DNA of 64,000 nucleotides from Fibrobacteria bacterium (GTDB lineage: Bacteria; Fibrobacterota; Fibrobacteria; UBA11236): assembly GCA_017881725.1 (NCBI GenBank), contig JADGQO010000038.1, forward strand, positions 8,687 to 72,686. The letters run 5' to 3'. Under the pieces are notes generated by a model. It made no database searches. It saw nothing but the letters and a program-made list of their open reading frames with translations, and was not told the origin of the DNA. Of this stretch, positions 5,955-51,041 are shown in pieces. Position 1 is the first letter of the stretch. Each line of letters starts with the position of its first letter. The position numbers were made by a program, and so were the translations under genes.

Positions 5955-6962
5955 TTGAAGGATTGGGACATGAAGTTCGCGGGTTACCCCTTGAACACCA
6001 ATTTCAAAAACACATTCAAGGTGCAGGACAGCCTGATGATTGTGGACTACAGCGGCTATACGAGCTTCTCCACGGAATACGGACACATGGCCTACAAGGT
6101 CCGGCCGTTCTCCTATTATTTGCTGCGCGCGGAGTATTCGCCAGGCACCAATCAGGTTTCCGGTGGCCAGGGCTGGGCCGTCCAGAACAATGGCTTGATG
6201 TTGCATGCGCAATCCATGGCCAGCATGACCTTGAATCAGGATTATCCCATCAGTTTGGAGGCGCAACTATTGGGTTCGAAAAACAGCGCCAATAGTTTGA
6301 ACCTTTGCACGCCGGGAACGGCATTCTTCAACACGCCAACGGGCGGCTCGGTCAACACCACGCATTGCATCAACGCCAGCAACAGCCCTGCGCCGGCTTC
6401 TGATGCATGGGCTTGGGGCGCCGTTTTGGTAATGAGCGATTCCATCATCCGCCACTACGCCAAGAATAACGCGGTCGGCACGCCGGTATTGACTTATTAC
6501 CGAACCGTCTATTACGCCGGAAACGTCACCAACCCTCCCGCCGGTACGCCCGCCAACGGGACGCCTCTGAAAAGCGGATACATCACCGTGCAAGCGGAAA
6601 GCGCGCCGTATCGGTTCCGACACATCGAACTCGTGAATTTGGAAGGCTGCATGACGGTGGGAAATGCGAATTACAAGAGTTATTTCGTCTACAACGATCC
6701 GGCCGCGTGCAATACCGTCAACGTGGGACAAGCCGCCGGGTTGGAACCGCAATTCACGGTCAGCCCCAGGGTAGCGTCCTTCGCGCCCGCGCGCGAGTCG
6801 CGCCGCATCGAAATTTTTCAAAACGATGGGCGGCTATTGTCGACTTTGGAGGTCCCTTTCGGCGCGCGCGAAATCCGCTTGCCGGAAATGCCACGCGGCG
6901 TTTATTTCGCCAAGCTCGCGGCTGTGCACGGCGCGGTCACGCGGCGGCTGGCCGTTTATTGA
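5955..6962 (+). CDS. DUF1080 (3-keto-disaccharide hydrolase-like) protein with a T9SS C-terminal sorting domain; N-terminus probably disrupted
   Basis: DUF1080 core (GWAVQNNGLMLHAQS, YPISLEAQLLG, YITVQAESAPYRFRHIELVNL). The C-terminus is a Por_Secre_tail-like CTD (RRIEIFQNDGRLLSTLEVPFGAREIRLPEMPRGVYFAKLAAVHGAVTRRLAVY). Domain homology (TDWISLFNRVDLKDWDMKF) continues in frame upstream to the stop at 5832-5834, with no start codon and no signal peptide; the only start is a TTG at 5955 inside the domain. An A6 run sits at 5865-5870. Confidence 0.6.
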   Translation: MKDWDMKFAGYPLNTNFKNTFKVQDSLMIVDYSGYTSFSTEYGHMAYKVRPFSYYLLRAEYSPGTNQVSGGQGWAVQNNGLMLHAQSMASMTLNQDYPISLEAQLLGSKNSANSLNLCTPGTAFFNTPTGGSVNTTHCINASNSPAPASDAWAWGAVLVMSDSIIRHYAKNNAVGTPVLTYYRTVYYAGNVTNPPAGTPANGTPLKSGYITVQAESAPYRFRHIELVNLEGCMTVGNANYKSYFVYNDPAACNTVNVGQAAGLEPQFTVSPRVASFAPARESRRIEIFQNDGRLLSTLEVPFGAREIRLPEMPRGVYFAKLAAVHGAVTRRLAVY

Positions 6963-37160: not shown

Positions 37161-39584
37161 ATGAAAAATATCGAAAAGATTACCCGGGACTTCGTCGCGG
37201 AAGGCCGGGAAGGCATGGACCAGTACGAGCAGGATCTGCTGTCGCTGGAAAAAAGTCCTACGGCCCCGGAAACCATTTCCAGCATTTTCAGGGTCGTGCA
37301 CACCGTCAAAGGCGCCTGTGGATTCCTGGGCTTCCGGAAGCTGGAGGCCTTGGCCCACCGGGGTGAAAACCTGCTCAGCGCGTTGCGCGAGGGGACGATG
37401 ATCGCGAACCCGGAAATCATCAACTGCCTGTTCCTGTTGGGCGATTCCATCCGGGCCATTCTCACCTGCATCGAGATGGGAGATCCGGAAGGCGGCAACG
37501 ATTATACCCGGTTCCTGGCCGATATGGACGCCCTGCAATCCGATTGGGTCGGGGCCGCCCCGGGCGGGTCCGCCATGAGCGGGGCCGCCAGGGTCGGGGC
37601 CATACCCGCCGAGAGTCCGGCCATTCCTGCCGAAGGTGAAGGGAGCTCCCCGGCCGCGCTTAACGAGGCTGCGGAAATTTCCTCGGTCCCGCCCTTGGCG
37701 GACATGCCCCTGGCGGTCGCGCCCGTGGTGCCCGCACCCATGGAAACCGCGCCAACGGAAGCGCAAACCGATGTAACCTCTGTGTTACTTGCTCCGGCCG
37801 CCGATCCCGATCCCGCGCCCGCTCCGAAGGATCCTCCGCAGGAGGTTCGGGCCCTGCACGACCAAACCATCCGCGTCGACGTCCCGCTGCTGGACAAGAT
37901 CATGAACCTGGTGGGCGAGTTGGTGCTGGTCCGCAACCAGGTGCTGCAACATGCGCTCACGGCGGGCAACGGCCCCATGACGGTGACCTTCCAGCATCTG
38001 AGCACCATCACCACGGAGCTGCAGGAAGGCGTGATGAAAACCCGCATGCAGCCGATCAAGAACCTGTGGGGAAAATTCCCGCGCGTGGTCCGGGAGCTGG
38101 CGCTGGCCTGCGGAAAATCCGTCCGCCTGGAAATGGAAGGCGGCGATACGGAGTTGGACAAAACCATTCTGGAGGCCATCAAGGATCCCCTGACCCATCT
38201 ATTGCGCAACGCCGTTGACCACGGGATTGAAACGGCGGAAACGCGCGTCGCCAAAGGCAAGCCCGCGGAAGGCCGCATCCTGGTGAAAGCTTTCCATATC
38301 GGCGGCAAGGTGAATATCGAAATGTCCGACGACGGCATGGGCATCGATTGCAAAAAAATCGCCAAGAAGGCCTTGGAGAAAGGCCTCATCTCGGCCGGGT
38401 CCGTGGCGGCCATGCAGGAAAGGGAATTGGCGCAATTGATTTTCCTGCCGGGCTTTTCCACGGCGGAAGCCATCACCAACGTTTCCGGCCGCGGCGTGGG
38501 CATGGACGTGGTCAAAACCCATGTGGAAAAAATCGGCGGCTCGGTGGAGCTGGTCAACCGGCCGGGCCTGGGGTTGACGCTGAAGATCAAAATCCCTTTG
38601 ACCCTGGCCATCATCCCCGCCCTGATCGTGGAGTCCTCGCAGCGCCGCTATGCCATCCCGCAGGTGAACATCCTGGAAGTGGTCCGGTTGAAGGGCCAAG
38701 GCCCGGGGAAAGGCGTGGAATGGATCCAGGACAATCCGGTTTACCGTTTGCGCGGAAACCTGCTGCCCCTGGTCCGCTTGGAAGGCTTGTTCCAGGCGGC
38801 CGAGGGACAAACTTCGTCCGCGCCCGAATCCGCGATCCAAGAGAACTTCGTCATCGTCCTGCAATCGGACAGCCATAATTTCGGACTCCTGATCCACGCC
38901 GTCCAGGAGACGCAGGAAATCGTGGTGAAGCCGTTGGGCAAGCATCTCAAGTCGGTCAACTTGTTCGCCGGCGCCACCATCATGGGAGACGGCAAGGTGG
39001 CGTTGATCCTGGACGTGCCGGGGTTGGCGCAAAACGTGAACTTCGCCCGCGATCCTGTCGCGCGCGACTCACGATTGCTCGAAAACCCCGACAAGCAAGG
39101 CCGGAACGCGGGCCTTGGCGAAAATCCGGTTCCAACGGAAAGCCTTTTGATCGCTTTGATCAACGGGTATGGGCCGATTGCCGTTCCCTTAGCCAGCCTT
39201 TCCCGGCTGGAAGAGTTGCCGACCTCGGCCATCGAATTCGCCTCGGGGACCGAAGTGGCGCAAAGCCGCGGAAGGATCATGCCGCTCATCAGGCTGAGCC
39301 GGTTCCTGGACGGCCTATCGGAAGCGCATTCCAAATCGGAGCATCCCGTCTCGGAAAAAGTGACCGTCATCGTATTCGGAAAAGGGGATTTGACGGCCGG
39401 GTTCATGGTGGATAAAGTGCTGGACATGGTCGATGCCAAGCTGGACATGCATTTGCCCGCTTCGCGGCCCGGCGTACGCGGATCCACGCTCATCAAAGGC
39501 AAAGCCACGGAAGTGATCGACCTCTCCACCTTCGCGCGTCTGGCGCTCCCGGCCTTGTTCGGCGCACCGGATCGGGACGGCTGA
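37161..39584 (+). CDS. cheA: Chemotaxis histidine kinase CheA
   Basis: Hpt (FRVVHTVKGACGFLGF), dimerisation domain, HATPase_c (DDGMGID, GRGVGMDVV), and two C-terminal CheW-like domains. Confidence 0.9.
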   Translation: MKNIEKITRDFVAEGREGMDQYEQDLLSLEKSPTAPETISSIFRVVHTVKGACGFLGFRKLEALAHRGENLLSALREGTMIANPEIINCLFLLGDSIRAILTCIEMGDPEGGNDYTRFLADMDALQSDWVGAAPGGSAMSGAARVGAIPAESPAIPAEGEGSSPAALNEAAEISSVPPLADMPLAVAPVVPAPMETAPTEAQTDVTSVLLAPAADPDPAPAPKDPPQEVRALHDQTIRVDVPLLDKIMNLVGELVLVRNQVLQHALTAGNGPMTVTFQHLSTITTELQEGVMKTRMQPIKNLWGKFPRVVRELALACGKSVRLEMEGGDTELDKTILEAIKDPLTHLLRNAVDHGIETAETRVAKGKPAEGRILVKAFHIGGKVNIEMSDDGMGIDCKKIAKKALEKGLISAGSVAAMQERELAQLIFLPGFSTAEAITNVSGRGVGMDVVKTHVEKIGGSVELVNRPGLGLTLKIKIPLTLAIIPALIVESSQRRYAIPQVNILEVVRLKGQGPGKGVEWIQDNPVYRLRGNLLPLVRLEGLFQAAEGQTSSAPESAIQENFVIVLQSDSHNFGLLIHAVQETQEIVVKPLGKHLKSVNLFAGATIMGDGKVALILDVPGLAQNVNFARDPVARDSRLLENPDKQGRNAGLGENPVPTESLLIALINGYGPIAVPLASLSRLEELPTSAIEFASGTEVAQSRGRIMPLIRLSRFLDGLSEAHSKSEHPVSEKVTVIVFGKGDLTAGFMVDKVLDMVDAKLDMHLPASRPGVRGSTLIKGKATEVIDLSTFARLALPALFGAPDRDG

Positions 39585-39585
39585 C

Positions 39586-40041
39586 ATGGCCCAGTATTGC
39601 ACTTTTTATCTGGATCGCCGCATCTTCGGATTGGACATCCTGCAAATCCAGGAGATCATCCATATCCCGGAAATCACTCCGGTTCCCAACTCGCCGTTTT
39701 TCGTGCAAGGGTTGGCCAACCTGCGTGGCCAAATCGTGGTGACGATCAATCTCCGGAATATTTTTGGATTGAAGCCCGCGCCCGACTCGGTGAACCCCGT
39801 GCATATCATCGTGCCGTTTGAGGGGGAAGCCCTGAGCCTCATCGCGGACCGGGCCGGGGACGTGCAGGACTTCGGCGAAGCGCCCATGGTGCCGCCGCCC
39901 AAAGCGTTTTCCGGGCCGGGATCGGAATTGATCAAAGGCATTTTCGAACTCAAGGATTCGCTGCTCCACATCATCGACCCGGAGCCCATTTTCGCGAATC
40001 GATTCGCATCGGAACCCAAGTTAACCCGGTCCATCCCTTAG
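39586..40041 (+). CDS. cheW: Chemotaxis coupling protein CheW
   Basis: [43 protein letters not shown]. Confidence 0.9.
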
Positions 40042-40049
40042 GAGCCATC

Positions 40050-41528
40050 ATGTCCAACGAAATCAAACGCAGCTCGAACGGCTTCCTGGCCAGGTTCAGC
40101 GATTCCAGGATCCACGTCAAACTCTTGACCTTGGTGATCCTGTTCCTCACCGCCTTCCTGGTATTCGCCGGACTGGCGTGGAACACCATCCGCATCGTGC
40201 AAATCCGCGGGCCGTATTACAACAACATCGTCCAAAGCAAGGACCTGATCGCGGACATCCTGCCGCCTCCGGAATATCTCATCGAAGCCTACCTGAACGT
40301 GCTGCAAATGGCCGACGAGACCGACAAGCAGAAGCTGACCGACCTGATCCAAAAAGGGAAATCCCTGCGCACGGACTATGAGACCCGGAAGGACTTCTGG
40401 CAGAACGATTTGAGCGACGGCAAGATCAAAAACACTTTGCTCGTCGACTCCTACCAACCGGGCATGGCTTTCCTGGATAAGCGCGACAAGGAATTCATCC
40501 CCCTGCTGCTGCAAGGCGATCGCGCCGGGGCGCAAAAACTGGCGCATGGATTCCTCAAGGAGAAATATGAACAGCATCGGCTGGCCATCGACAAGGTGGT
40601 GTCGCTTTCCAATGACAAATACCAGGCTGACGAAGGCGCGGCCAACGCCATCCTGCATAGCCGCACCTTCCTGATGTTCGGTTTCGCGGCGGGCATCGTG
40701 ATCTTCGTATCGCTGCTGTGCTGGTACATCATCAAGCTGATCACCGGAACGCTTTCGCAAATCTCCATGGGGCTGGAGGCGGCTTCCAAGCAGCTGACCA
40801 ATGTCAGCCAGCAAATGAGCACCAATGCGGAGGAGACCTCTTCCCAGGCCACGTTGGTGAGTTCGACGTCCCAGCAGGTGAATCAAAGCGTGCAAACCGT
40901 GGCGGTGGGCACGGAAGAGATGACGGCCAGCATCCGGGAAATATCCAAGAGCACGTCGGAATCCGTGCGCGTAGCGGACTCGGCCGTCCGGATGGCGGAG
41001 ATCACCAACGCCAACGTCACCAAGCTGGGGGACAGCAGCGAGGAAATCGGGAACATCATCAAGCTCATCACGTCCATCGCGGAACAGACCAACCTCCTGG
41101 CCCTGAACGCCGCCATCGAAGCGGCCCGCGCGGGGGAAGCGGGCAAGGGATTCGCCGTGGTCGCGAACGAAGTCAAGGAACTGGCGCGGGAGACCGCCAA
41201 GGCCACGGAGGACATCAGCAAGAAAATCGTGGCCATCCAGAACAATACCCAAGGGGCCATCTTGTCCATCACCCAGATTGGGAACATCATCAAGCAGATC
41301 AGCGAAATCCAGAACACCATCGCCAGCGCGGTGGAGGAACAGACCGTGACCACCAATGAAATCGCCAAGAATATTTCCGAGGCCGCGCGCGGCAGCGGTG
41401 AAATCGCCAGGAATATTTCCGGCGTGGCCGACGCGGCCCACAGCACGGCCAACGGCGCGGTGCAAACTCAAAAAGCCTCGGAAGAGTTGGCCAAGATGCT
41501 GGCGGATTTACAGCACGTGGTGGGCTAA
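40050..41528 (+). CDS. Methyl-accepting chemotaxis protein (two TMs, periplasmic helical sensor, no obvious HAMP)
   Basis: Conserved MCP signalling hairpin ([31 protein letters not shown]) and flanking methylation heptads. Confidence 0.85.
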
Positions 41529-41533
41529 CCGCC

Positions 41534-42628
41534 TTGCCCAGCAGGATTAAGGTCCTCATCGTCGACGACTCCCTGTTGGCGTGCCGGATTTTATCGGAAA
41601 CCGTTTCCCAGGACCCCGCCTTGGAAGTCTCCGGGACGGCGGTGTCCGGCCCCATCGCCCTGGCCAAACTGACGCAAGGCCTTCCCGATATCGTCATGCT
41701 GGATGTGGAAATGCCCGGCATGGACGGCCTGCAAGTCCTGGGGGAGATCAAGAAGGCCTACCCCAAACTGCCGGTAATCATGTGCAGCGGGCTGACCAAG
41801 CTGGGCAACCGCGTGACCATGCAGGCGCTGATGGGAGGCGCGTCCGACTACATCACCAAGCCCGAAGGTAACATGAAAGTTACGGGGGATGGCCACGCCT
41901 TTTCCCGGGAGTTGTCCCAGAAAATCAAGGCCTTGTGCGCGCCCCACTCCCCGCCCTGGACGCCGGTGGTAATGGATCCGGCGCCGGCGCCGCACCCGGG
42001 GGCGGCGGATCCCGACATATTGGCCATCGGCATTTCCACGGGCGGGCCCAACGCCCTGGCGGAATTCATCCCCCGGCTCCCGGCGGATTTTCCCGCGCCC
42101 ATCGTCATCGTGCAGCACATGCCGCCGCTGTTCACCAAGTCCTTGGCGGAATCCCTTTCCAAGAAATCGCTTATCGAAGTGCGCGAAGGCGTGGCGGGGG
42201 CGCGTCTGGAGCGGGGCACAATCTGGATCGCTCCCGGCGGATTCCACATGGAGGCGTTACGGCGAAAGGGCCAGGTGGAGATTGCCATCAGCGAAGGCCC
42301 GCCGGTGAACTCCTGCCGGCCTTCCGTGGATATCCTGTTCCAATCCGTGGCGGAAGCCTACGGCCCCAAGGTGTTGGCCGCGGTGCTCACGGGCATGGGC
42401 GCGGACGGGCTGACGGGATGCTCCCGGATCCGGAAAGCGGGCGGCCGGGTGTTCGTGCAGGACGAGGCCAGCAGCGTGGTCTGGGGCATGCCGGGAGCGG
42501 TGGCGAAAGCCGGCTTGGCGAACAAGGTCCTGCCGCTGAACGATATGGCGGCGGAAATCATTTCCTGTTTTTATAATCGGGAAAAAAACCAACCGGCTCC
42601 GGACTTCCGGACCCGCAAAAGCGATTGA
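41534..42628 (+). CDS. cheB: Chemotaxis methylesterase CheB (REC + CheB_methylest); TTG start
   Basis: IKVLIVDDS ... IVMLDVEMPGMDG ... ILAIGISTGGPNAL ... HMPPLFT ... GMGADG. Confidence 0.9.
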   Translation: MPSRIKVLIVDDSLLACRILSETVSQDPALEVSGTAVSGPIALAKLTQGLPDIVMLDVEMPGMDGLQVLGEIKKAYPKLPVIMCSGLTKLGNRVTMQALMGGASDYITKPEGNMKVTGDGHAFSRELSQKIKALCAPHSPPWTPVVMDPAPAPHPGAADPDILAIGISTGGPNALAEFIPRLPADFPAPIVIVQHMPPLFTKSLAESLSKKSLIEVREGVAGARLERGTIWIAPGGFHMEALRRKGQVEIAISEGPPVNSCRPSVDILFQSVAEAYGPKVLAAVLTGMGADGLTGCSRIRKAGGRVFVQDEASSVVWGMPGAVAKAGLANKVLPLNDMAAEIISCFYNREKNQPAPDFRTRKSD

Positions 42629-42641
42629 GGCGATCAACACC

Positions 42642-43463
42642 ATGGCTGTAAGTGAGTTCGATTTCCAATTCGTTTCCGTCCTCCTTAAAAAACGGCTCGG
42701 CATCCAATTGGAGAAGGACAAGGCCTATCTGGTGGAGTCCCGGTTGAGCCGCGTCGCGGAAAAATCGGGCATGGGATCGCTGGCCCAACTCTTCACCCAG
42801 CTCAAGTCGCTGCGGCCGCCCGAAGCCTTGGTCAACGAGGTGTTGGAGGCCATGACCACCAACGAGACCTATTTCTTCCGCGACTCGAGCAGCTTCGACG
42901 CGCTCAGGGACAAGGTATTTCCGGAATTGTTGGGAAAGAATAAAAACCAGAAGTCGCTCAACGTCTGGTCGGCGGCCTGTTCGACGGGACAGGAGCCCTA
43001 CAGCATCGCGATCACCTTGAGGGAGTGCCTTCCGCAGCAGGGCGATTGGAACATCCGCATCCTGGGCACCGACGTGGCGACGCAGGTATTGCAGCGGGCC
43101 CGCGACGGAGTTTACAACGGCGCGGAAACCGCCCGGGGCCTGACGCCGGGCCAATTGAGCCGGTATCTGGTTCCGGAGGGGGAAACCTGGAAGATACGTG
43201 ACGAAATCCGGAAAATGGTTTCCTTCCAACCGTTGAACCTGAATTCCGACTGGCCCTACCTGGCCAAAATGGACGTCATCTTCCTGCGCAATGTCCTGAT
43301 CTACATGGACGACGCCAACCGGAAAGCGATTTTCTCCCGCATCCATCAGCTCTTGAACAAGGACGGCTATTTGTTCCTGGGCGCGGCGGAAACCACCTAC
43401 AGCATTTCCGATCTGTTCCGCAGGGTGGAATGGGAAAAGGCCGGTTGTTTTAGACCCTTGTGA
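42642..43463 (+). CDS. cheR: Chemotaxis methyltransferase CheR
   Basis: TNETYFFRD, VWSAACSTGQEPYSIAI, IFLRNVLIYMD. Confidence 0.9.
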   Translation: MAVSEFDFQFVSVLLKKRLGIQLEKDKAYLVESRLSRVAEKSGMGSLAQLFTQLKSLRPPEALVNEVLEAMTTNETYFFRDSSSFDALRDKVFPELLGKNKNQKSLNVWSAACSTGQEPYSIAITLRECLPQQGDWNIRILGTDVATQVLQRARDGVYNGAETARGLTPGQLSRYLVPEGETWKIRDEIRKMVSFQPLNLNSDWPYLAKMDVIFLRNVLIYMDDANRKAIFSRIHQLLNKDGYLFLGAAETTYSISDLFRRVEWEKAGCFRPL

Positions 43464-43651
43464 AATCGGGTCCTTGTAAAACCGGGTTTGCCGGGCTGAA
43501 ATCGCGGACGGTTCGGCCCTTTTAGGGTTTTCAGGCCCGCACCTTCAAGGGGCGATGACAATCTCGCGCAAATGGACGGCGGACCACCTCACCTTCTCTG
43601 CCATAATGTCGCCGGAAACAACCGGCCGTCCGCTCCTCCATTAAATATAAT

Positions 43652-43667
43652 ATTAGCATATGCTAAT
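43652..43667. promoter_or_regulatory. Perfect 16-bp palindrome ATTAGCATATGCTAAT overlapping the predicted -10 region of the sqr-like gene; candidate operator
   Basis: ATTAGCAT/ATGCTAAT is exactly self-complementary. It sits 31 nt upstream of the ATG at 43699 (Shine-Dalgarno AAGGAGGG). Flanking TTAAAT and TAATGT read as -35/-10. Confidence 0.55.
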
Positions 43668-43698
43668 GTAGAGATTGAAAAGAGCAAGGAGGGCCGGC

Positions 43699-44910
43699 AT
43701 GGCAAAGACATTGGTGCTGGGCGGAAATTTCGCGGGATTGACGGCGGCTTTGGAACTATCGCGGCGCTTGGGACGGCGCACGGATCATCAGGTGACGGTG
43801 ATATCCCCGTCGGAACGCTTTCTCTACGTCCCATCCTTGATTTGGCTTCCCTTCGGCAAGCGCAAGCTGGAGGACATCACTTTTCCGGTGGCTCCCATGC
43901 TGGCGCGTAAAGGCGTGGCCTTCATCCGGGACCGGGCCGAAAGAATAGTGCCGGAGCGGAACGTGGTGCTTACGGCGGAGGGCGGTGAGATCGGATACGA
44001 TTACCTGATCGTCGCCACGGGCGCGGCCATGGATTTCGGGGGCTTCCCGGGATTTTCCGAGGGGCATGCCCAATGCATCGTGAGCCCGGATCAAGGCGCG
44101 AAGGCTTATCGGGCCTTCCAGGAGTTGGTGCGGAATCCCGGACCCGTGGTGGTCGGGGCCGTGCAAGGCGCGAGCTGCATGGGCGCGGCTTACGAGTACC
44201 TGTTCAATCTCGAGCGCGAGCTGCGTCGCCACGGCGTGCGCAAGCAGGTGGATCTCACTTGGATCACCCCGGAACCCTATCTGGGTCATTTTGGAATCGG
44301 CGGAATCCGCGGCGGTCAATGGATGCTGGAAAAGTTCTTCAAGCTGTACGGTATCCATTGGCATGTCAACGCGTCGCTCAAGGAAATCTCCGCCGATAAG
44401 ATTGTGCTGGACGACGGGCGGGCGCTGCCCTACCGCATGTCCATGTTGATGCCGCCTTTCCGCGGCGCCGATCCCGTGCGCAATTCCTCCGGCCTGGGTG
44501 ATGAGAAAGGGTTCATTCCCTGCGACGACGGTTATCGGCATGATCGTTTCGCCAACATCTATGCCGCCGGGCTCGCGGTGCAGGTCAAGCCTCCCTTCGC
44601 GAAATGCGCCGTTCCCTTCGGCGTGCCTAAGACGGGATACCCCAGCGACGTGCAGGGCAAAATCGTGGCCCAGAACATCGCCAACGCCATCACCGGAAAA
44701 TCGGAACGCAAGCGCAAGGCTTTTGGAAGGATTCCGGGCGTGTGCGTGATGGATGCGGGAGGCAAGGAGGTGTTGATCCTGACCGATCATTTGTTCAAGC
44801 CCCGCCGCTTCGAGCTCATGCTACCTAATATGTTGGGCAGCTTCGGCAAGCTGTTTTTGGAACGTTACATGCTCTTCAAGAACCGGCTGGGATGGGCTTT
44901 CCTGCCTTAA
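43699..44910 (+). CDS. sqr: FAD-dependent sulfide:quinone oxidoreductase-like flavoprotein (Sqr/FCSD family)
   Basis: MAKTLVLGGNFAGLTAA (dinucleotide-binding motif), central DYLIVATGA, and a conserved Cys region typical of SQR-like enzymes. Strong Shine-Dalgarno site. Confidence 0.65.
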   Translation: MAKTLVLGGNFAGLTAALELSRRLGRRTDHQVTVISPSERFLYVPSLIWLPFGKRKLEDITFPVAPMLARKGVAFIRDRAERIVPERNVVLTAEGGEIGYDYLIVATGAAMDFGGFPGFSEGHAQCIVSPDQGAKAYRAFQELVRNPGPVVVGAVQGASCMGAAYEYLFNLERELRRHGVRKQVDLTWITPEPYLGHFGIGGIRGGQWMLEKFFKLYGIHWHVNASLKEISADKIVLDDGRALPYRMSMLMPPFRGADPVRNSSGLGDEKGFIPCDDGYRHDRFANIYAAGLAVQVKPPFAKCAVPFGVPKTGYPSDVQGKIVAQNIANAITGKSERKRKAFGRIPGVCVMDAGGKEVLILTDHLFKPRRFELMLPNMLGSFGKLFLERYMLFKNRLGWAFLP

Positions 44911-44926
44911 TGGATTGGGAATCGGC

Positions 44927-45226
44927 TCAGCAGTAAATCTGCTGCAGGGCGACCACCAGGTTCAGCATGCGCTTGTCCTTGACCCGATAGAATACCTGGT
45001 TACCGGCCTTGCGCGTTTCCAGGATGCCTTTGTCGCGTAGCTTGGCCAGATGCTGGGAGACGTTGCTCTGCGAGGTTTGCAGGAACGTCTCCAATTCACC
45101 GACCGTTTTCTCCCCCGATCCGATATGGCAAACCGTAAGCAAGCGCATTTCATGGGCCAGGGCCTTGAGCGTCGCGCTGGCCTTGGCGGCTTCTTTAATC
45201 AGTGGATTTAAGCGCGGAGTTTTCAT
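44927..45226 (-). CDS. ArsR/SmtB-family regulator of the BigR/SqrR (persulfide-sensing) type
   Basis: wHTH (LKALAHEMRLLTVCHIGSGEKTVGELETFLQTSQSNVSQHLAKLRDKGILE). Only two Cys residues: Cys33 in helix alpha-2 and the C-terminal residue (..QQIYC), which is the BigR/SqrR pattern rather than the alpha-3 metal site. Its ATG overlaps the upstream UbiA-like stop as ATGA. Confidence 0.6.
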   Translation of the reverse strand: MKTPRLNPLIKEAAKASATLKALAHEMRLLTVCHIGSGEKTVGELETFLQTSQSNVSQHLAKLRDKGILETRKAGNQVFYRVKDKRMLNLVVALQQIYC

Positions 45227-46143
45227 GTGCTGTAAAACCATTTGCCCACGGCGTACGCGGGCAAAACCCACAGGGCGCCGCACAGGGCCTGCACCGGCGG
45301 CACTTGGTTGGCCAGCATGGCCAGTACGTCCACGAGCGGCACCAGGCGCAGCATCATGCCCACCATTTGCCCGGTATGTTTGGGACTGGGATCGGACGCC
45401 AGATTGCGCAACGGCACGCGCAGCAATATGGCCAAGCCCAACCAGGCCAAGGCCAGCAGGTTTCCTGCATGGAACCAGGCGAGCGCGGCCACGGACCATC
45501 CGATGAACCAAACGGCGGTTCCCAGCATGAAAAGGTAGGCGCGTTTTTTAGTGTTGCCGCCCACTTCGTCGCGGGCCAAATAGGTGACGATCGCGATATA
45601 GCCCCACAGTGAAAACAAGGCGAACCACAGGGGTTTCGGCAACGACTCCGGCGCGGGCCAGGCATTCCAAGCCAGCGAGATGCCCGTGGCCAGATTGAGC
45701 ATACGGCAAAGGCCCATGGCCGCGGGACCTAAGGCCGTGCCTTTGAGCAGGAAGTTATAGGCGAAGATGGCCAGGCACAGCGCCCCAGCGGGCAGCGATG
45801 ACAGGGGGTGCAGGACGCTCAGCAAAATCAGGCCCGCGGACATCATGCCCAGGCTCAGGGCCCACGCGCCTCGCAGGGTAATGGCCCCGGAGGGGATGGG
45901 CCGCCCCGGCCGCTCGCGCGCGTCCACGTCCTTATCGGCAACGTCGTTGAGCGCCATGCCCGCCATGATGAACAAACCCGCCGCCAGGATACCGGCTATG
46001 GGAGCGATAGGCGCGGCGGCGGCAGAAAACGTCGGAAGGTTCCCGGAGGCGGCGCAGCCGATCATATAACCGGCGTAGGCGTTGGACATGGAGCTGAACA
46101 CGGTCGGGATGCGGACCAGGGAGAGAAATGCTTTGCCGTTCAC
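45223..46143 (-). CDS. UbiA-family aromatic prenyltransferase (EboC-like)
   Basis: NDVADKDVDARERPGRPIPSG (first Asp-rich motif); 8-9 TMs. Confidence 0.8.
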   Translation of the reverse strand: MNGKAFLSLVRIPTVFSSMSNAYAGYMIGCAASGNLPTFSAAAAPIAPIAGILAAGLFIMAGMALNDVADKDVDARERPGRPIPSGAITLRGAWALSLGMMSAGLILLSVLHPLSSLPAGALCLAIFAYNFLLKGTALGPAAMGLCRMLNLATGISLAWNAWPAPESLPKPLWFALFSLWGYIAIVTYLARDEVGGNTKKRAYLFMLGTAVWFIGWSVAALAWFHAGNLLALAWLGLAILLRVPLRNLASDPSPKHTGQMVGMMLRLVPLVDVLAMLANQVPPVQALCGALWVLPAYAVGKWFYST

Positions 46144-46146
46144 GGA

Positions 46147-47538
46147 TTATCCTTCCAGCACATGGGCTTCGATGAGATCATGGACGGCTTCCATGGGTAA
46201 CTTTCCGGTTACGGCAGCCAGGCGTTCCCGGATTCCGGACGCGTCGGAAATCGCCAGCGGGGATTCCTCGGGATTTTCGGACGGCGTTCCGTGGCTGCCT
46301 TTCACCAATTCCGGCATCAGGGGTATCACGTCCATGTAATAACGGAAGCCCAGGATTTTCTTGAGCAAGGTGAAAGCCATTTTCAGTTTGACGGCTTTCT
46401 GTTTGGGATCGAGGAACAATTCCACGGGGTCATAGCCGGGCTTGCGATGGATGTCCACGCAGCGCGCGAAATCCGGCGCCAGGGCGTCATCGTCCCAATA
46501 ATAATAGGTGTACCAATTGTCCGGTTGCGCCATCAGGATAAGGTCCCCGCTGCGCTCATGCTTCAGGCCCGCCTTTTCAATGGCATCGCCGACAAGCACA
46601 GCGCGGGTTCCCGGCTCTTTGGCAAACAACGCCGCGACTTCGGGTACGCGTTTTTTGTCCTTCACATAGACATGGCAAATCTGGTGATCGGAAACGGCGA
46701 AAGCCGCGCTGGCCCCGGCGTCGAGCATTTCCCAGGTCAGGCTGCGGCGGATTTCCAAAAAGCCCGCCCGGCGCAAAATGCGGTTGGGGTGGGCGAAGCG
46801 GGTCACGCGCGAGATACCGTATTCCGAAACCACCAGCACGCGAACTTTTTTCCCCTGGAAATATTCGATCAAATCCCCGGCCACGCGATCGATGGCGGCG
46901 AGTTCGCCCTCCATTTCCGGCGCGCCCGGACCGAACTTTTGTAATCCATAATCCAGGTGGGGCAAATACACGAGGCTCAAGGTGGGCTTATGTTTTGCGT
47001 AAGTCCATTTCGCCGAGGCCGCGATCCATTCGGAGGATTTGATGCCGCTGGCCGGTCCCCAGAATTGGAAGAAGGGGAAAGGCCCCAAGTCCTTCACCAA
47101 ATCGTCGCGCAGCGATTGCGGATGCGTATACACGTCGAATATTTTCCGGCCGTCGGCGGGATATTGCGGACGCGGCGTCACGCTCCAATCCACGTCCGCG
47201 TACATGTTGTACCACCAAAACAACTTGGCGCACGTGAATCCCGGCTGTTCGCGCTTCAGTTTCTCGTAAACCTTCTCGCCCTGGATCAAGCCGTTGTTCT
47301 GCTTCCAGAAACCCACCTCGGCATGATCCTTGAAGTACCACCCGTTGCCCACCACGCCGTTCTCGCCCGGCCGCTTTCCGGTCAACATCACCGCCTGGCT
47401 TGTGCAGGTCACGGCCGGGAAGGGCTCGCGCAAGGGCGCGGATCCGTTCGCGTCCAGGAATTTTTTCAGCCGGGGCGTATGCGGCCCGATCAAGGATCGC
47501 GTCAGCCCCACGATGTTCAGGACCACGGTATCATGCAT
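46147..47538 (-). CDS. Alkaline-phosphatase-superfamily nucleotide pyrophosphatase/phosphodiesterase-type protein (EboF-like)
   Basis: FPAVTCTSQAVMLTGKRPGENGVVGNGWY (Thr-nucleophile region) plus distal metal-binding His/Asp blocks. Its start overlaps the upstream gene's stop by 8 nt. Confidence 0.8.
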   Translation of the reverse strand: MHDTVVLNIVGLTRSLIGPHTPRLKKFLDANGSAPLREPFPAVTCTSQAVMLTGKRPGENGVVGNGWYFKDHAEVGFWKQNNGLIQGEKVYEKLKREQPGFTCAKLFWWYNMYADVDWSVTPRPQYPADGRKIFDVYTHPQSLRDDLVKDLGPFPFFQFWGPASGIKSSEWIAASAKWTYAKHKPTLSLVYLPHLDYGLQKFGPGAPEMEGELAAIDRVAGDLIEYFQGKKVRVLVVSEYGISRVTRFAHPNRILRRAGFLEIRRSLTWEMLDAGASAAFAVSDHQICHVYVKDKKRVPEVAALFAKEPGTRAVLVGDAIEKAGLKHERSGDLILMAQPDNWYTYYYWDDDALAPDFARCVDIHRKPGYDPVELFLDPKQKAVKLKMAFTLLKKILGFRYYMDVIPLMPELVKGSHGTPSENPEESPLAISDASGIRERLAAVTGKLPMEAVHDLIEAHVLEG

Positions 47539-48844
47539 CGGAAAAAGTCCCTTCGGGTACTTGGTTGATCACGAAACGGATTTCCTCCGCCAGACAATGC
47601 GCCAGCGCGGCGTCGTCCTTGGGGCGCAAGGCTTCCGGCAGTACGGACCAGGTATAGGTCTCGACTTCGAAATGCCGGCACAGATCGTGCTTCAGGGCAT
47701 GCCGCAGGGCGGCGATCATGTCCGCCTGGGTGGTTGAGAATCCGACCGGGGCGTCGGCGTGGATGGGCACATGATAATGCACGCGCCAGGGTTGTGACCA
47801 CAAATCCTGGTTATCGATTTCCAGCGCCTCGGGGAGATCGTCGAAACCCAAGGTTTTCCCGCCGACGGAGGAATGCAGGGAGTAACCTGCGCTTGCGGTA
47901 CTTGGGGGGCTTGCGGCGCGTGCGGCTTTGGCGGAGGGCTGATTGGGGTGGGGGAGGCGGCGGTGCAGGTTTTCATCCTGCGGAACCCAGACGCGGGTCT
48001 GATGCAGAAAGCGCGGCTCCACGAAGGACTGGCGTAACGCGCGGGTTACTCTATCCGGATCCGGTTGGAATTCCAGCGCGCTCGACAATTGCATTTTCAC
48101 GATGGGGATGCCCGCCGCCGCGAGCTTATCCAAGGCCCGGATGGGATCCTCGAATTGCACGGCCTGGTGGCAGGTGTCGTAGCAGAGTCCCACAAAGGCG
48201 TTGAGATCCGCGTCCGCCAGCCCGCGCGCGCGCGCAGTGGGCCGCAAGACCTCGTCCCAAAAAGCCACGACCTGATCGATGGTTTCCAACGCGCAGCCGG
48301 GCTCGGGTTCCAATCCCAGACGCAGGGTGCGGTTTTTTTTATCGGCCAACTCCCGGGCTCCGGCCACATAATCGCATAACGCCGATGCCGCACTGCGCGC
48401 ATGGTCCGGGGTCCAACCCGCGCGCCATCCCAAAGGCAAGGTGGAAACCGATCCGACTCCACCCTCGGGAAGCAAGGTCGCCAAGAGCCGGGCGCAAGCC
48501 AAGGTATACGCCAACCGCTCCGGGCGGGTCCAATCAGGATGATAGACTTTGGTTTTCACCACCGGGTCATGGAAGAATCCGTAGGGAAAAGCATTACACG
48601 TGAAGGCGCCCAATTGCGGTGGCGTCAGGACGGATTGCAGGCGGGCTTGGCCTCCATCCGCATCGCGGGACAAATCTTGCGCCAAGGAGGAGGGAAACCA
48701 TAAACCCAAGGTCAGGCGCGGCCAACCTAAATCCGACCGGACGGCGGATCCGAATCGCCGCATTAAATCATGCCAGGCGGTCCAATCCGATATGGGATGC
48801 ACATTGGTGCAATAGGTTAGATGGTTCAGGCCCAGGTTTTTCAA
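47531..48844 (-). CDS. Xylose-isomerase-like TIM-barrel protein (EboE-like)
   Basis: The N-terminal HLTYCTNVHP block and overall TIM-barrel character are those I associate with EboE; the context (UbiA, AP-family and DHQS-like neighbours) supports it. Only a TTG start is available at 48844. Confidence 0.5.
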   Translation of the reverse strand: MKNLGLNHLTYCTNVHPISDWTAWHDLMRRFGSAVRSDLGWPRLTLGLWFPSSLAQDLSRDADGGQARLQSVLTPPQLGAFTCNAFPYGFFHDPVVKTKVYHPDWTRPERLAYTLACARLLATLLPEGGVGSVSTLPLGWRAGWTPDHARSAASALCDYVAGARELADKKNRTLRLGLEPEPGCALETIDQVVAFWDEVLRPTARARGLADADLNAFVGLCYDTCHQAVQFEDPIRALDKLAAAGIPIVKMQLSSALEFQPDPDRVTRALRQSFVEPRFLHQTRVWVPQDENLHRRLPHPNQPSAKAARAASPPSTASAGYSLHSSVGGKTLGFDDLPEALEIDNQDLWSQPWRVHYHVPIHADAPVGFSTTQADMIAALRHALKHDLCRHFEVETYTWSVLPEALRPKDDAALAHCLAEEIRFVINQVPEGTFSDA

Positions 48845-49042
48845 CTTTTATAGACCTTTGATAACCTTTTATTGCCGTTTAGTAGGAAGTTCACCGGGCC
48901 CGGCAACTCCATAGTTTTGGCCTTTTTCCGGATAATCCCTGTCCCAAATTCAGGAGGGCGGAGTAGATTAAATTAGTAATCTGGTTGACTGGGGTTCGCC
49001 GTTCTTGCGGCGGGCCGGGGTTAGAGGGGAAGACATTTCCGT

Positions 49043-50200
49043 ATGCAGGAACAGCTGGCCGTAGCCCAGGAATCAATCGTCCGCAATTTGCGCACCATGC
49101 GCACCTTGATATCGCCCCTGAAAGGGGAAATGCCCATCCATTGCGGACCGGGCGCCATCGGCCGCTTGCCGCAATTGCTTCTCGACTTGAAGCCGGACCG
49201 CATTTTCATCATCACCGATCAACGGGTGTTCGGATTGCATGGCCAAAACCTGTTGCAGCTCCTGGCGCCGCATTTCGCGCCGGAAATCCTGTTGTTGGCC
49301 GAAGGCGAGAACGAGAAAAAAATCTCCAATTTGGAATTCCTGTGCAATCAACTCTTTGAGCGCGGGCTGACCAAGTCCTCCGTCATCGTGAACTTCGGCG
49401 GCGGCGTGGTCTTGAACCTGGGCGGGCTGTCGGCGTCTTTGGTCTATCGCGGCGTGCGCTTCGTGCAAGTGCCCACCACCTTGATGGCGCAAAGCGACGT
49501 CATCGTTTCCAACAAACAAGGCATCAATTTCGCCGGGGGTAAGAACCGGCTGGGCGTTTATAATACGCCGGTCGCGGCCGTGGCGGATACCCATTTCATC
49601 CGCACCGAACCGGTCCGGCAATTGCGCGCCGCGGCGGTGGAATACTGCAAGAACGCCATCCTACTGGGCGGAAGGCATTACGCCGAGGCCGAGCGCTTTT
49701 TCGCCGCGCCGGCGGAAACGTATACCGATGAGCGCATCGAGATCTTGCTCGCGAACAGCCTGGAGCAAAAATTCGAAATCGCGCGCCTCGATCCCCTGGA
49801 AAAGTCGCTGGGCCTGATGCTGGAATACGGCCATACCGTGGGCCATGCCCTGGAATACCTGTCCCAGGGCCGCTTGCTGCATGGGGAAGCCGTGTATCAC
49901 GGCATGAACGTGGCGGGCCATCTGGCCTTGCACCTGGGTATCTTGCCGGTTACGGAGCTCAAGAAGCAAAGCTTGCTCCTTTCGCGTCTGCGCGGCATCC
50001 CGCCCATCCCCAAGGATATTTCCGTGGGCCAAATCCTTTCCAGCGTCCAGCGCGACAATAAGAAGACGGGCAAAGGCCTGGCCTTCATCCTGATGCGCGC
50101 CATCGGCGAAGTGAACCGCCATGAGTCAGGGGTCTTGACGCCCGTCTGCGATTTTCAGCTCAATCATGTGATGCACGAGTATTGGGATGCTCTGTTATAG
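49043..50200 (+). CDS. 3-Dehydroquinate-synthase-family sugar-phosphate cyclase (EboD-like)
   Basis: GGGVVLNLGGLSASLVYRGVRFVQVPTTLMAQSDVIVSNKQGIN ... YGHTVGHALE ... HGEAV. Confidence 0.8.
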   Translation: MQEQLAVAQESIVRNLRTMRTLISPLKGEMPIHCGPGAIGRLPQLLLDLKPDRIFIITDQRVFGLHGQNLLQLLAPHFAPEILLLAEGENEKKISNLEFLCNQLFERGLTKSSVIVNFGGGVVLNLGGLSASLVYRGVRFVQVPTTLMAQSDVIVSNKQGINFAGGKNRLGVYNTPVAAVADTHFIRTEPVRQLRAAAVEYCKNAILLGGRHYAEAERFFAAPAETYTDERIEILLANSLEQKFEIARLDPLEKSLGLMLEYGHTVGHALEYLSQGRLLHGEAVYHGMNVAGHLALHLGILPVTELKKQSLLLSRLRGIPPIPKDISVGQILSSVQRDNKKTGKGLAFILMRAIGEVNRHESGVLTPVCDFQLNHVMHEYWDALL

Positions 50201-51041
50201 CACGGGCTCTTTGCCCGATGCCGCCTCCGTTTCCGACATCATCGACCTGCTCGCGCCCACGCCCTTCCGGGGCGTGGAGTTCGTCCTTACGGCCGCCATG
50301 CTTCCTCATGCCGAAGACGCCGGGTATTGGAAAACCGTCCGGGAACAGTTCGCGGAAGCCGGACTCTGTGTCCGCAACGTGCATTTGGGTTCGCCCCACC
50401 TGTGCGGCCCGGAGGCCCACCGCCCCGGCCTCGCGACCTTGGACGACAAGGCGCGCGCCGAGAAATTCCGCGTGGCGGGAAAAGCTCTGCGCATCGCCGC
50501 TTGGCTGGGCAGCCCGCATCTCACCTTGACCACGGGTCTTCCCGACGCGGAAAGCCCGGATCCCACAGTAACCTCCATGTTACGCGCACGCCAAACCGAG
50601 GCCCTGCGCGGGGAACTGGCCCGGCTCGTGGCGGCCAAACCGCGCGGTCTCGATCTCCTCATCGAACAGGAACCGGAGCATGTGATCCGGGAAACCGCGC
50701 AGCTCATCGATTTGTGCGAGGAATTCCCCGGCGACGTATTCGCAAATTTCGACGTGGGCCACAGCCACGTGATGGGCGAGGACATTCCCGCCTGCATCCG
50801 GGCCTTGGGCCCGCGCCTGCGCAACGTCCACCTGGAGGACATCCGGGGCCGCGTGCACCGGCACCATCTGTTCGGGGACGGGGACATCGATTTCGACGCC
50901 GTCTTCCGTAGCTTGCAGGTTACGGGGTACCATGGCGATTACACTCCCGATCTGTATCCTTTCAAGGACGAGGCCCCGCGCGCGTTGGCCGCCTCGGAGG
51001 CTTTCCTGCGGCGGCACGGGGTCTTGACTCCGGCGTTGTGA
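50187..51041 (+). CDS. Sugar phosphate isomerase/epimerase (xylose-isomerase-like TIM barrel, AP_endonuc_2 family)
   Basis: LCYSTGSLPD ... GVEFVL ... NVHLG ... FDVGHSHV ... NVHLEDI. It overlaps the EboD-like stop by 14 nt. Confidence 0.75.
   Translation: MLCYSTGSLPDAASVSDIIDLLAPTPFRGVEFVLTAAMLPHAEDAGYWKTVREQFAEAGLCVRNVHLGSPHLCGPEAHRPGLATLDDKARAEKFRVAGKALRIAAWLGSPHLTLTTGLPDAESPDPTVTSMLRARQTEALRGELARLVAAKPRGLDLLIEQEPEHVIRETAQLIDLCEEFPGDVFANFDVGHSHVMGEDIPACIRALGPRLRNVHLEDIRGRVHRHHLFGDGDIDFDAVFRSLQVTGYHGDYTPDLYPFKDEAPRALAASEAFLRRHGVLTPAL

Follow-up and report, generated by a model that had tools for sequence, protein, structure and literature searches.

The stretch of DNA considered here, referred to below as the window, comprises 64,000 nucleotides of contig JADGQO010000038.1 from a Fibrobacteria bacterium (assembly GCA_017881725.1). 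It carries a gene, sqr, for a flavoprotein of the sulfide:quinone oxidoreductase (SQR) family (43699 to 44910, plus strand), and a convergent gene for a regulator of the ArsR/SmtB family (44927 to 45226, minus strand). Only 16 bp separate the two stop codons (44911 to 44926). In front of sqr lies ATTAGCATATGCTAAT (43652 to 43667, assigned to neither strand), a palindrome of the form ATTAG-CATATG-CTAAT. A preliminary description of this locus had already pointed to this 16-mer on the sqr promoter as exactly self-complementary, and it is. As set out below, the palindrome is a candidate operator, with sqr as the proposed regulated target. The neighbouring repressor of the BigR/SqrR family may bind there as a single dimer.

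On sequence grounds, the 403 amino acid product of sqr belongs to the SQR family. It has a Pyr_redox_2 domain (Pfam) and matches the SQR structures from A. ferrooxidans (3t2y; E value of 5.8e-72 over residues 1-398) and Aquifex (3hyv; 3e-71), and its homologs are named sulfide:quinone oxidoreductase by the Joint Genome Institute (JGI). Two cysteines, C160 (in GASCMGAAYEY) and C349 (in GVCVMDAGG), occupy the alignment columns of the catalytic residues C160 and C356 in the A. ferrooxidans enzyme and are invariant in 16 members of the SQR subfamily. The third cysteine of type I SQR proteins (C128 in A. ferrooxidans) corresponds to Val128 here. Another cysteine, C126, is located two residues before the Val128 column and is present in most subfamily members and absent from some. 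The first dinucleotide-binding motif reads LGGNFAG, wherein Asn takes the place of the second Gly of the canonical GxGxxG, and LG(S/G)NFAG, including its Asn, is invariant across the subfamily. In the species-level genome collection, no relative of this SQR exceeds 64% identity. The start codon of the gene is the ATG at 43699, neither the alternative at 43690 nor the TTG at 43675. The Shine-Dalgarno sequence AAGGAGG (43686 to 43692, plus strand), described as strong in the preliminary account, is indeed present 6 nucleotides before this ATG, and its GGAGGG is conserved in the closest related locus (L084, see below).

The regulator is a protein of 99 amino acids with Pfam matches to HTH_5 and HTH_20. 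It contains exactly two cysteines, C33 and C99, the latter of which is the last residue. The preliminary description had placed these in helix alpha-2 and at the extreme C-terminus, as in BigR and SqrR and not in the manner of an alpha-3 metal site, and had made its proposal depend on their correspondence to C42 and C108 of BigR. When the alignment was run, C33 and C99 fell in precisely those columns, which are also occupied by C41 and C107 of SqrR, and the pair is aligned in HlyU as well. An AlphaFold model of the protein (pLDDT 94) has the order alpha1-alpha2-alpha3-alpha4-beta1-beta2-alpha5, with C33 within alpha-2 (residues 26-35) and C99 directly after alpha-5 (residues 86-98). The best Foldseek matches of this model are HlyU, SqrR, BigR and YgaV, with TM scores of 0.75-0.89, and the best phmmer matches in the PDB are SqrR (6.5e-20), BigR (1.4e-16), HlyU (1.4e-16) and YgaV (6e-15). 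Judged from the sequence, residues for a metal site are missing from alpha-3 (TVGELETF), which has no Cys, and from alpha-5 (RMLNLVVALQQIY), which has no His, Asp or Glu. Among 51 homologs, 44 have C33 and 49 have C99, and all homologs that are at least 49% identical have both. These observations support the membership of the protein in the ArsR-family group of persulfide sensors with two cysteines that includes BigR, SqrR, HlyU and YgaV, and by analogy the protein may itself sense persulfides.

A script check of the window revealed no perfect 16-bp palindrome other than ATTAGCATATGCTAAT, and this sequence is matched nowhere but at itself even when up to 3 mismatches are allowed. With the outer half-sites alone (ATTAG-N6-CTAAT), there is no further copy at one mismatch or fewer elsewhere in the 64 kb; at up to 2 mismatches there are 5 matches, four of which have exactly 2 mismatches, compared with 10 expected. 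The palindrome ends 31 nucleotides before the ATG of sqr. Directly abutting its other end is TATAAT (43646 to 43651, plus strand), which is a candidate -10 hexamer with no recognisable -35 element. The palindrome was originally said to overlap the predicted -10. As the two adjoin, that statement is only roughly correct.

The closest relative of the regulator is 76% identical (L084), and its gene is convergent with that of a 403 amino acid SQR that is 82% identical to the window protein. Every other neighbour differs between the two loci. Upstream of sqr in L084 is TATCAT-ATTAGCATATACTAAT-GT, wherein the site again ends 31 nucleotides before the ATG, and the surrounding DNA has largely diverged. 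The next regulator homologs, at 62-72% identity, are encoded by the first gene of operons for TauE, a lactamase_B-rhodanese protein, and YeeE or a YgaP-rhodanese protein, which is the operon architecture of BigR. One homolog (68% identical) precedes a gene for a CoA-disulfide-reductase-rhodanese protein.

Matches to ATTAG-N6-CTAAT at 0-1 mismatch are found in the arsR and tauE promoters of these homologs (L081, L166, L167, L169 and L171). Examples include TTGACA-ttat-ATTAGAATATGCTTAT-attc before a regulator gene and ATTAGTTTATTCTAAT before tauE. Several of the sites are located directly after a TTGACA -35 element and run into the -10 element. There are 10 such matches in 72 kb from the loci of close homologs versus 11 in 902 kb of unrelated loci, the latter corresponding to a background of 0.012 per kb. 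All of the matches in the close homologs' loci are non-coding, and 9 of the 10 are located directly upstream of the regulator gene, tauE or sqr.

An unbiased enumeration was also made of all palindromes of the form 5-Nx-5 in 12 homolog promoters, from which the window and the sqr promoter of L084 were excluded. The motifs ranked highest are ATATT-N2-AATAT (11 of 12 promoters), AATAT-N4-ATATT (9 of 12) and ATTAG-N6-CTAAT (8 of 12). The two motifs made of A and T only are nested in or overlap the third, and they are 5-7 times more common in background DNA. Each of the three has one match in the 64-kb window, and all of these matches are located at 43649-43667. Thus, the conclusion that an operator lies here is independent of the register chosen.

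The best match of the regulator among solved structures is SqrR of Rhodobacter capsulatus (approximately 45% identity; PDB 6o8k-6o8o), which responds to persulfide and represses sqr along with other genes induced by sulfide. The core operator of SqrR is 5'-ATTC-N8-GAAT, and its minimal high-affinity site is a 22-bp two-fold duplex, wherein base contacts are made by R60, Q61, Q66 and K84 (bioRxiv 10.64898/2026.05.15.721447). The site in the window, written as ATTA-N8-TAAT, has the same 16-bp frame and differs in the fourth base. The two systems are alike in their aligned pair of sensor cysteines, in having sqr as the target, proposed or established, and in a two-fold 16-bp site with outer ATT, and Q61 and Q66 of SqrR are conserved as Q53 and Q58. 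In contrast, R60, K84 and Q67 of SqrR are replaced by S52, N76 and H59, respectively, and the half-site reads ATTAG instead of ATTC(G). The presence of S52 and N76 in place of R60 and K84 may explain why the operator differs in its fourth and fifth bases. The window regulator also differs from SqrR in lacking a third cysteine and in the location of its gene, which adjoins sqr at the tail of an unrelated operon. BigR from Xylella fastidiosa and Agrobacterium tumefaciens (PDB 3pqj) has the same fold and the same cysteine pair, C42/C108, and the closest homologs of the window regulator are found in BigR-type operons (regulator, TauE, Blh-type dioxygenase-rhodanese and sulfur transporters). However, the target proposed here is sqr, a search of the window for homologs of tauE, blh and yeeE found none, and the regulator is not a strict ortholog of BigR.

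We therefore favour, with a probability of about 0.75, the reading that the regulator and the operator in front of sqr constitute a two-gene switch for sulfide detoxification of the SqrR/BigR type. In reduced form, with its cysteines as dithiol, the regulator would dimerise and bind the two-fold 16-bp site, with its two alpha-4 recognition helices inserted in successive major grooves. A repressor bound at a site that abuts the -10-like TATAAT would block transcription of sqr. When sulfide in the cell gives rise to persulfides and polysulfides, C99, which is equivalent to the attacking Cys107 of SqrR, would become persulfidated and then bridge to C33 (the equivalent of Cys41) through a di- to tetrasulfide link. 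The bridged regulator would have a lower affinity for DNA, and sqr would be expressed. This mechanism has been established for SqrR, in which Cys41 and Cys107 form a tetrasulfide (PMC5595413), for BigR, in which Cys42 and Cys108 are used (PMC5823870), and for HlyU (PMC10054925), and it is extended to the window regulator by analogy. The pair of sulfide-sensing repressor and operator envisaged in the preliminary description is thus supported in silico by the cysteine alignment, the SqrR-like frame of the site, its conservation in L084 and the motif in the homolog promoters. The gene identities, the cysteine alignment, the fold, the conservation of the site and the enrichment of the motif are established by the present analysis.

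Several considerations weigh against this reading. That the regulator binds DNA and represses sqr, which chemistry induces it and where the promoter lies are matters that we infer, largely from analogy with the characterized proteins. A consensus promoter scan found no complete sigma-70 pair of -35 and -10 elements on the plus strand, and the assignment of the -10 element for sqr is uncertain, although a TATNAT sequence is kept at this position in L084 and in a second related locus, L174 (TATCAT in both). The best NCBIfam model for the regulator is BigR (NF040642), but the score of 87.9 bits falls below the equivalog cut-off of 155. The protein is consequently filed in the wider two-cysteine group and not under BigR proper. 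In a set of 80 reference-genome loci with more distant SQR genes (identity of 64% or less), none has a close regulator homolog paired with the SQR gene, and a weak ArsR-family match is nearby in one of the 80 (L076), which indicates that the pairing of sqr with this regulator is lineage-specific. These distant loci carry other palindromes upstream of their SQR genes. The two AT-only motifs score higher than ATTAG-N6-CTAAT in the enumeration, and in the autoregulatory promoters the operator may therefore lie in another register.

The conservation and the statistics of the site also leave room for a different view. Full orthologous conservation of the sqr site amounts to one case, L084. The other locus available for comparison is L174, a contig of 1.9 kb that encodes an SQR 83% identical to that of the window, and it conserves the site only in part. 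It keeps TATCAT-ATTAGCATAT and with it the left half, while the right half is replaced; the sequence that follows, ATCAGTATATTTGAAT, has 2 mismatches. No regulator gene was found in the 280 bp downstream of sqr on this contig. Furthermore, perfect 16-bp palindromes occur at a mean of 2.05 per 64 kb under a first-order Markov model of the window, and so the occurrence of a 16-bp palindrome is by itself not above chance. The palindrome is meaningful because of its position in a promoter and its conservation in other genomes. The regulator might therefore be a true sensor of the BigR/SqrR type with its targets elsewhere, for example in a TauE/Blh/YeeE operon outside the window, while the palindrome in front of sqr is a chance AT-rich feature or a site for another protein. 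The nearest homologs mostly control operons of that kind and not sqr, and the regulator gene is part of another operon. We nevertheless regard this as unlikely, given that the site at sqr is a perfect copy of the motif found in this clade, that the rest of the window has no match at one mismatch or fewer, that the background rate of the motif is so low, and that gene pair and site are conserved together in L084 while the other neighbours are all different.

A related question is whether a protein bound at this palindrome would act as proposed. One member of the persulfide-sensor group, HlyU of Vibrio cholerae and V. vulnificus (PDB 4k2e, 4ooi and 3jth), works by activation or counter-silencing (PMC10054925), and this is a further point that counts against a simple repressor. 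HlyU is the top structural match of the regulator (TM score of 0.89) and among its best sequence matches, its recognition helix SQSALSQHLA comes closest to that of the window protein, SQSNVSQHLA, it has the same persulfide-reactive cysteine pair, and its V. cholerae operator contains ATTAA-N6-CTAAA (PMC10054925), which is close to ATTAG-N6-CTAAT. In addition, the original description of BigR was that of a redox sensor (PMC5823870). One could thus imagine an HlyU-like activator or counter-silencer on the palindrome, or a protein that responds to H2O2, hypochlorite or general disulfide stress instead of persulfides. However, HlyU activates virulence genes by displacing H-NS at far-upstream sites, whereas the site in the window belongs to the core promoter of a gene for sulfide oxidation. 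Together with the arrangement in the homologs, wherein TTGACA is followed after four nucleotides by an operator that runs into the -10 element, this is the geometry of a repressor site. As for the inducer, the target oxidises sulfide, the operons of the homologs encode a persulfide dioxygenase-rhodanese, and reactivity with persulfides or polysulfides has been reported for HlyU, SqrR and BigR. These considerations make an activator, or a sensor of other oxidants, improbable.

The regulator gene itself is located at the edge of an ebo-like gene cluster that extends from 45223 to 51041. Its start codon overlaps the stop codon of a UbiA/EboC-like gene within ATGA (45223 to 45226, minus strand), as seen from the sequence and the coordinates of the two open reading frames. 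This upstream gene encodes an EboC-like prenyltransferase (45223-46143, minus strand; identified through Pfam, with 127 bits for NCBIfam EboC and thus below the cut-off of 250). It is preceded on the same strand by genes for a type I phosphodiesterase (46147-47538; Pfam) and for EboE (47531-48844; NCBIfam, 382 bits against a cut-off of 250). Divergent from these, on the plus strand, are a dehydroquinate-synthase-like gene (49043-50200; DHQ_synthase) and a gene for a xylose-isomerase-like TIM barrel (50187-51041), which is the second TIM barrel of the cluster. The designation as ebo-like is based on the EboE score above the cut-off together with the expected neighbours.

From this gene order, the regulator gene is the last gene of an operon for EboE, the phosphodiesterase and the EboC-like protein, to which it is translationally coupled by the ATGA overlap and which leaves it no separate promoter region. 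In 45227-45600, neither an operator-like site nor a minus-strand promoter-like site was found, and the ebo promoter region contains no operator resembling ATTAG-N6-CTAAT. The absence of an operator upstream of the ebo-like operon suggests that the regulator is probably not autoregulated. Its synthesis is probably constitutive, with the ebo promoter determining the level. This placement is unlike that in all homologs examined, the closest of which are encoded by the first gene of an autoregulated operon, and none of the regulator homologs examined is linked to ebo genes. As a possible attenuator ahead of the regulator gene, a terminator-like hairpin near the end of eboC (within its 3' part; 45265-45241, minus strand) was examined and dropped, since its folding energy is not unusual (z score of -1.2). 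On the other side of the regulator gene, there is no terminator-like hairpin in the 16 bp (44911-44926) between it and sqr, and induced transcription of sqr could run antisense into the regulator gene. The corresponding gap in L084 is 112 bp, and thus the tight spacing in the window is not conserved.

The preliminary description had suggested that a second site similar to that of sqr might exist near 48845-49042. The sequence in question is AGATTAAATTAGTAATCT (48965-48982), which has 6-bp arms and a 6-bp spacer and is located between the divergent eboE and dehydroquinate-synthase-like genes. It was rejected as a second sqr-type operator because its form, ATTA-N6-TAAT, lacks 2 bp of the required spacing and agrees in one half-site only. 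No match to ATTAG-N6-CTAAT is present in it at up to 2 mismatches. AGATTAAATTAGTAATCT may serve a different regulator or have arisen by chance. It could also be imagined that the regulator controls its own ebo-like operon through this element, and that the convergent sqr is a mere neighbour. The overlap of the regulator start codon with the eboC stop codon, and the occurrence of a 6+6+6 palindrome with one ATTAG in the divergent promoter region, are in keeping with such an arrangement. However, the spacing is 2 bp short of the frame of the family, a palindrome with 6-bp arms within 200 bp is in the range of chance (approximately 0.5 expected by our own estimate), and the lack of linkage between regulator homologs and ebo genes speaks in the same direction. 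Control of the ebo-like operon in this way is therefore very improbable.

Other features of the sqr promoter region were noted in the course of these comparisons. A block reading CTGCCAT (43598 to 43604, plus strand) was identified by sequence comparison, and in the window, L084 and L174 alike it precedes the operator by 47-48 nucleotides. In the form (C/T)TGCCAT, with adjoining A/T-rich bases, it is common to the three sqr promoters (approximately 6873-6879 on the minus strand of L084 and 339-345 of L174), wherein the intervening DNA has diverged. This block could be an activator site, an UP-like element or what remains of another promoter. The corresponding region of L174 (391-425) reads ATTAGCAT ATCAGTAT ATTTGAAT ATTCGATT, four units of 8 nucleotides that each start with AT(T/C)NG. 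These units give several overlapping, degenerate operator registers and not one clean palindrome. Farther upstream in the window, a chemotaxis operon (cheA, cheW, a gene for a methyl-accepting protein, cheB and cheR; 37161-43463) is present on the same strand as sqr and ends 235 bp before it. No terminator-like site was found between the two, which makes read-through into the sqr promoter region conceivable. An Rfam search over 43300-49300 gave no match.

The SQR subfamily to which the window protein belongs appears, from the sequences upstream of its genes, to be placed under different and non-homologous sulfur sensors in different phyla, namely an ArsR-type protein here and a CsoR/CstR-type protein in Actinobacteria. 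Several actinobacterial members of the subfamily (L075, L060, L064, L066 and L068) have CsoR/CstR-type palindromes of the form ATACCCC..GGGGTAT upstream, such as AGCATACCCCTAGGGGTATGCT. At L075 (1307-1830), a divergent gene for a 94 amino acid CsoR/CstR-like protein with two cysteines, followed by a rhodanese gene, is located beside the SQR gene. CstR, a persulfide sensor of the CsoR family, follows the same logic as that proposed for the window regulator, in that it is a dithiol repressor that persulfide releases, whereupon genes for sulfide oxidation are switched on. It is a four-helix bundle instead of a winged-helix protein, and its operator is unrelated and has a GC-rich core. The loci from Leptospira have elements similar to ATACCCTGTAT.

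A scan of metagenomes with the regulator yielded only relatives of 53% identity or less, and these served for a comparison of ATTCG and ATTAG half-sites at the level of the family. Ten of these loci (L144, L150, L154, L159, L143 and L160-L164) represent a more distant ArsR clade in which the alpha-2 Cys is replaced by Glu and the recognition helix reads EQAN-SQHLAV. This clade has ATTCG-N6-CGAAT palindromes lying right over its own start region, so that the operator frame is that of the window although the alpha-2 sensor cysteine is missing. In more distant relatives the same motif is also seen just ahead of their own start codons.

The type of switch proposed here and the way in which such switches work are already known, and the understanding of them is unchanged. 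What is new is minor: the ATTAG variant of the half-site, and the placement of a regulator gene, without sign of autoregulation, as the translationally coupled last member of an ebo-like operon. A bolder view is that ATTAG-N6-CTAAT defines a separate class of operator specificity within the persulfide-sensing ArsR group, and that the fusion to the ebo operon has also uncoupled the sensor from autoregulation. The recognition helix may then specify the half-site, with (S/T)QSN-SQH corresponding to ATTAG, EQAN-SQH to ATTCG and RQAA-SQQ (SqrR) to ATTC. We offer this view tentatively, and consider it unlikely. If such a specificity code were real, it would keep parallel sulfur regulons from cross-talk. 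If the uncoupling were real, the threshold for sulfide detoxification would be set by the expression of the ebo pathway, which is concerned with metabolite traffic.

The locus provides a candidate pair of repressor and operator for sulfide sensing from an uncultivated lineage, and one that can be put to the test. The ATTAG-N6-CTAAT variant may help in the prediction of sulfide regulons from metagenome-assembled genomes of related organisms. Finally, the finding that one SQR subfamily seems to be controlled by an ArsR-type sensor in this lineage and by a non-homologous persulfide sensor of the CsoR/CstR type elsewhere fits, and lends support to, a role of this subfamily in sulfide detoxification.

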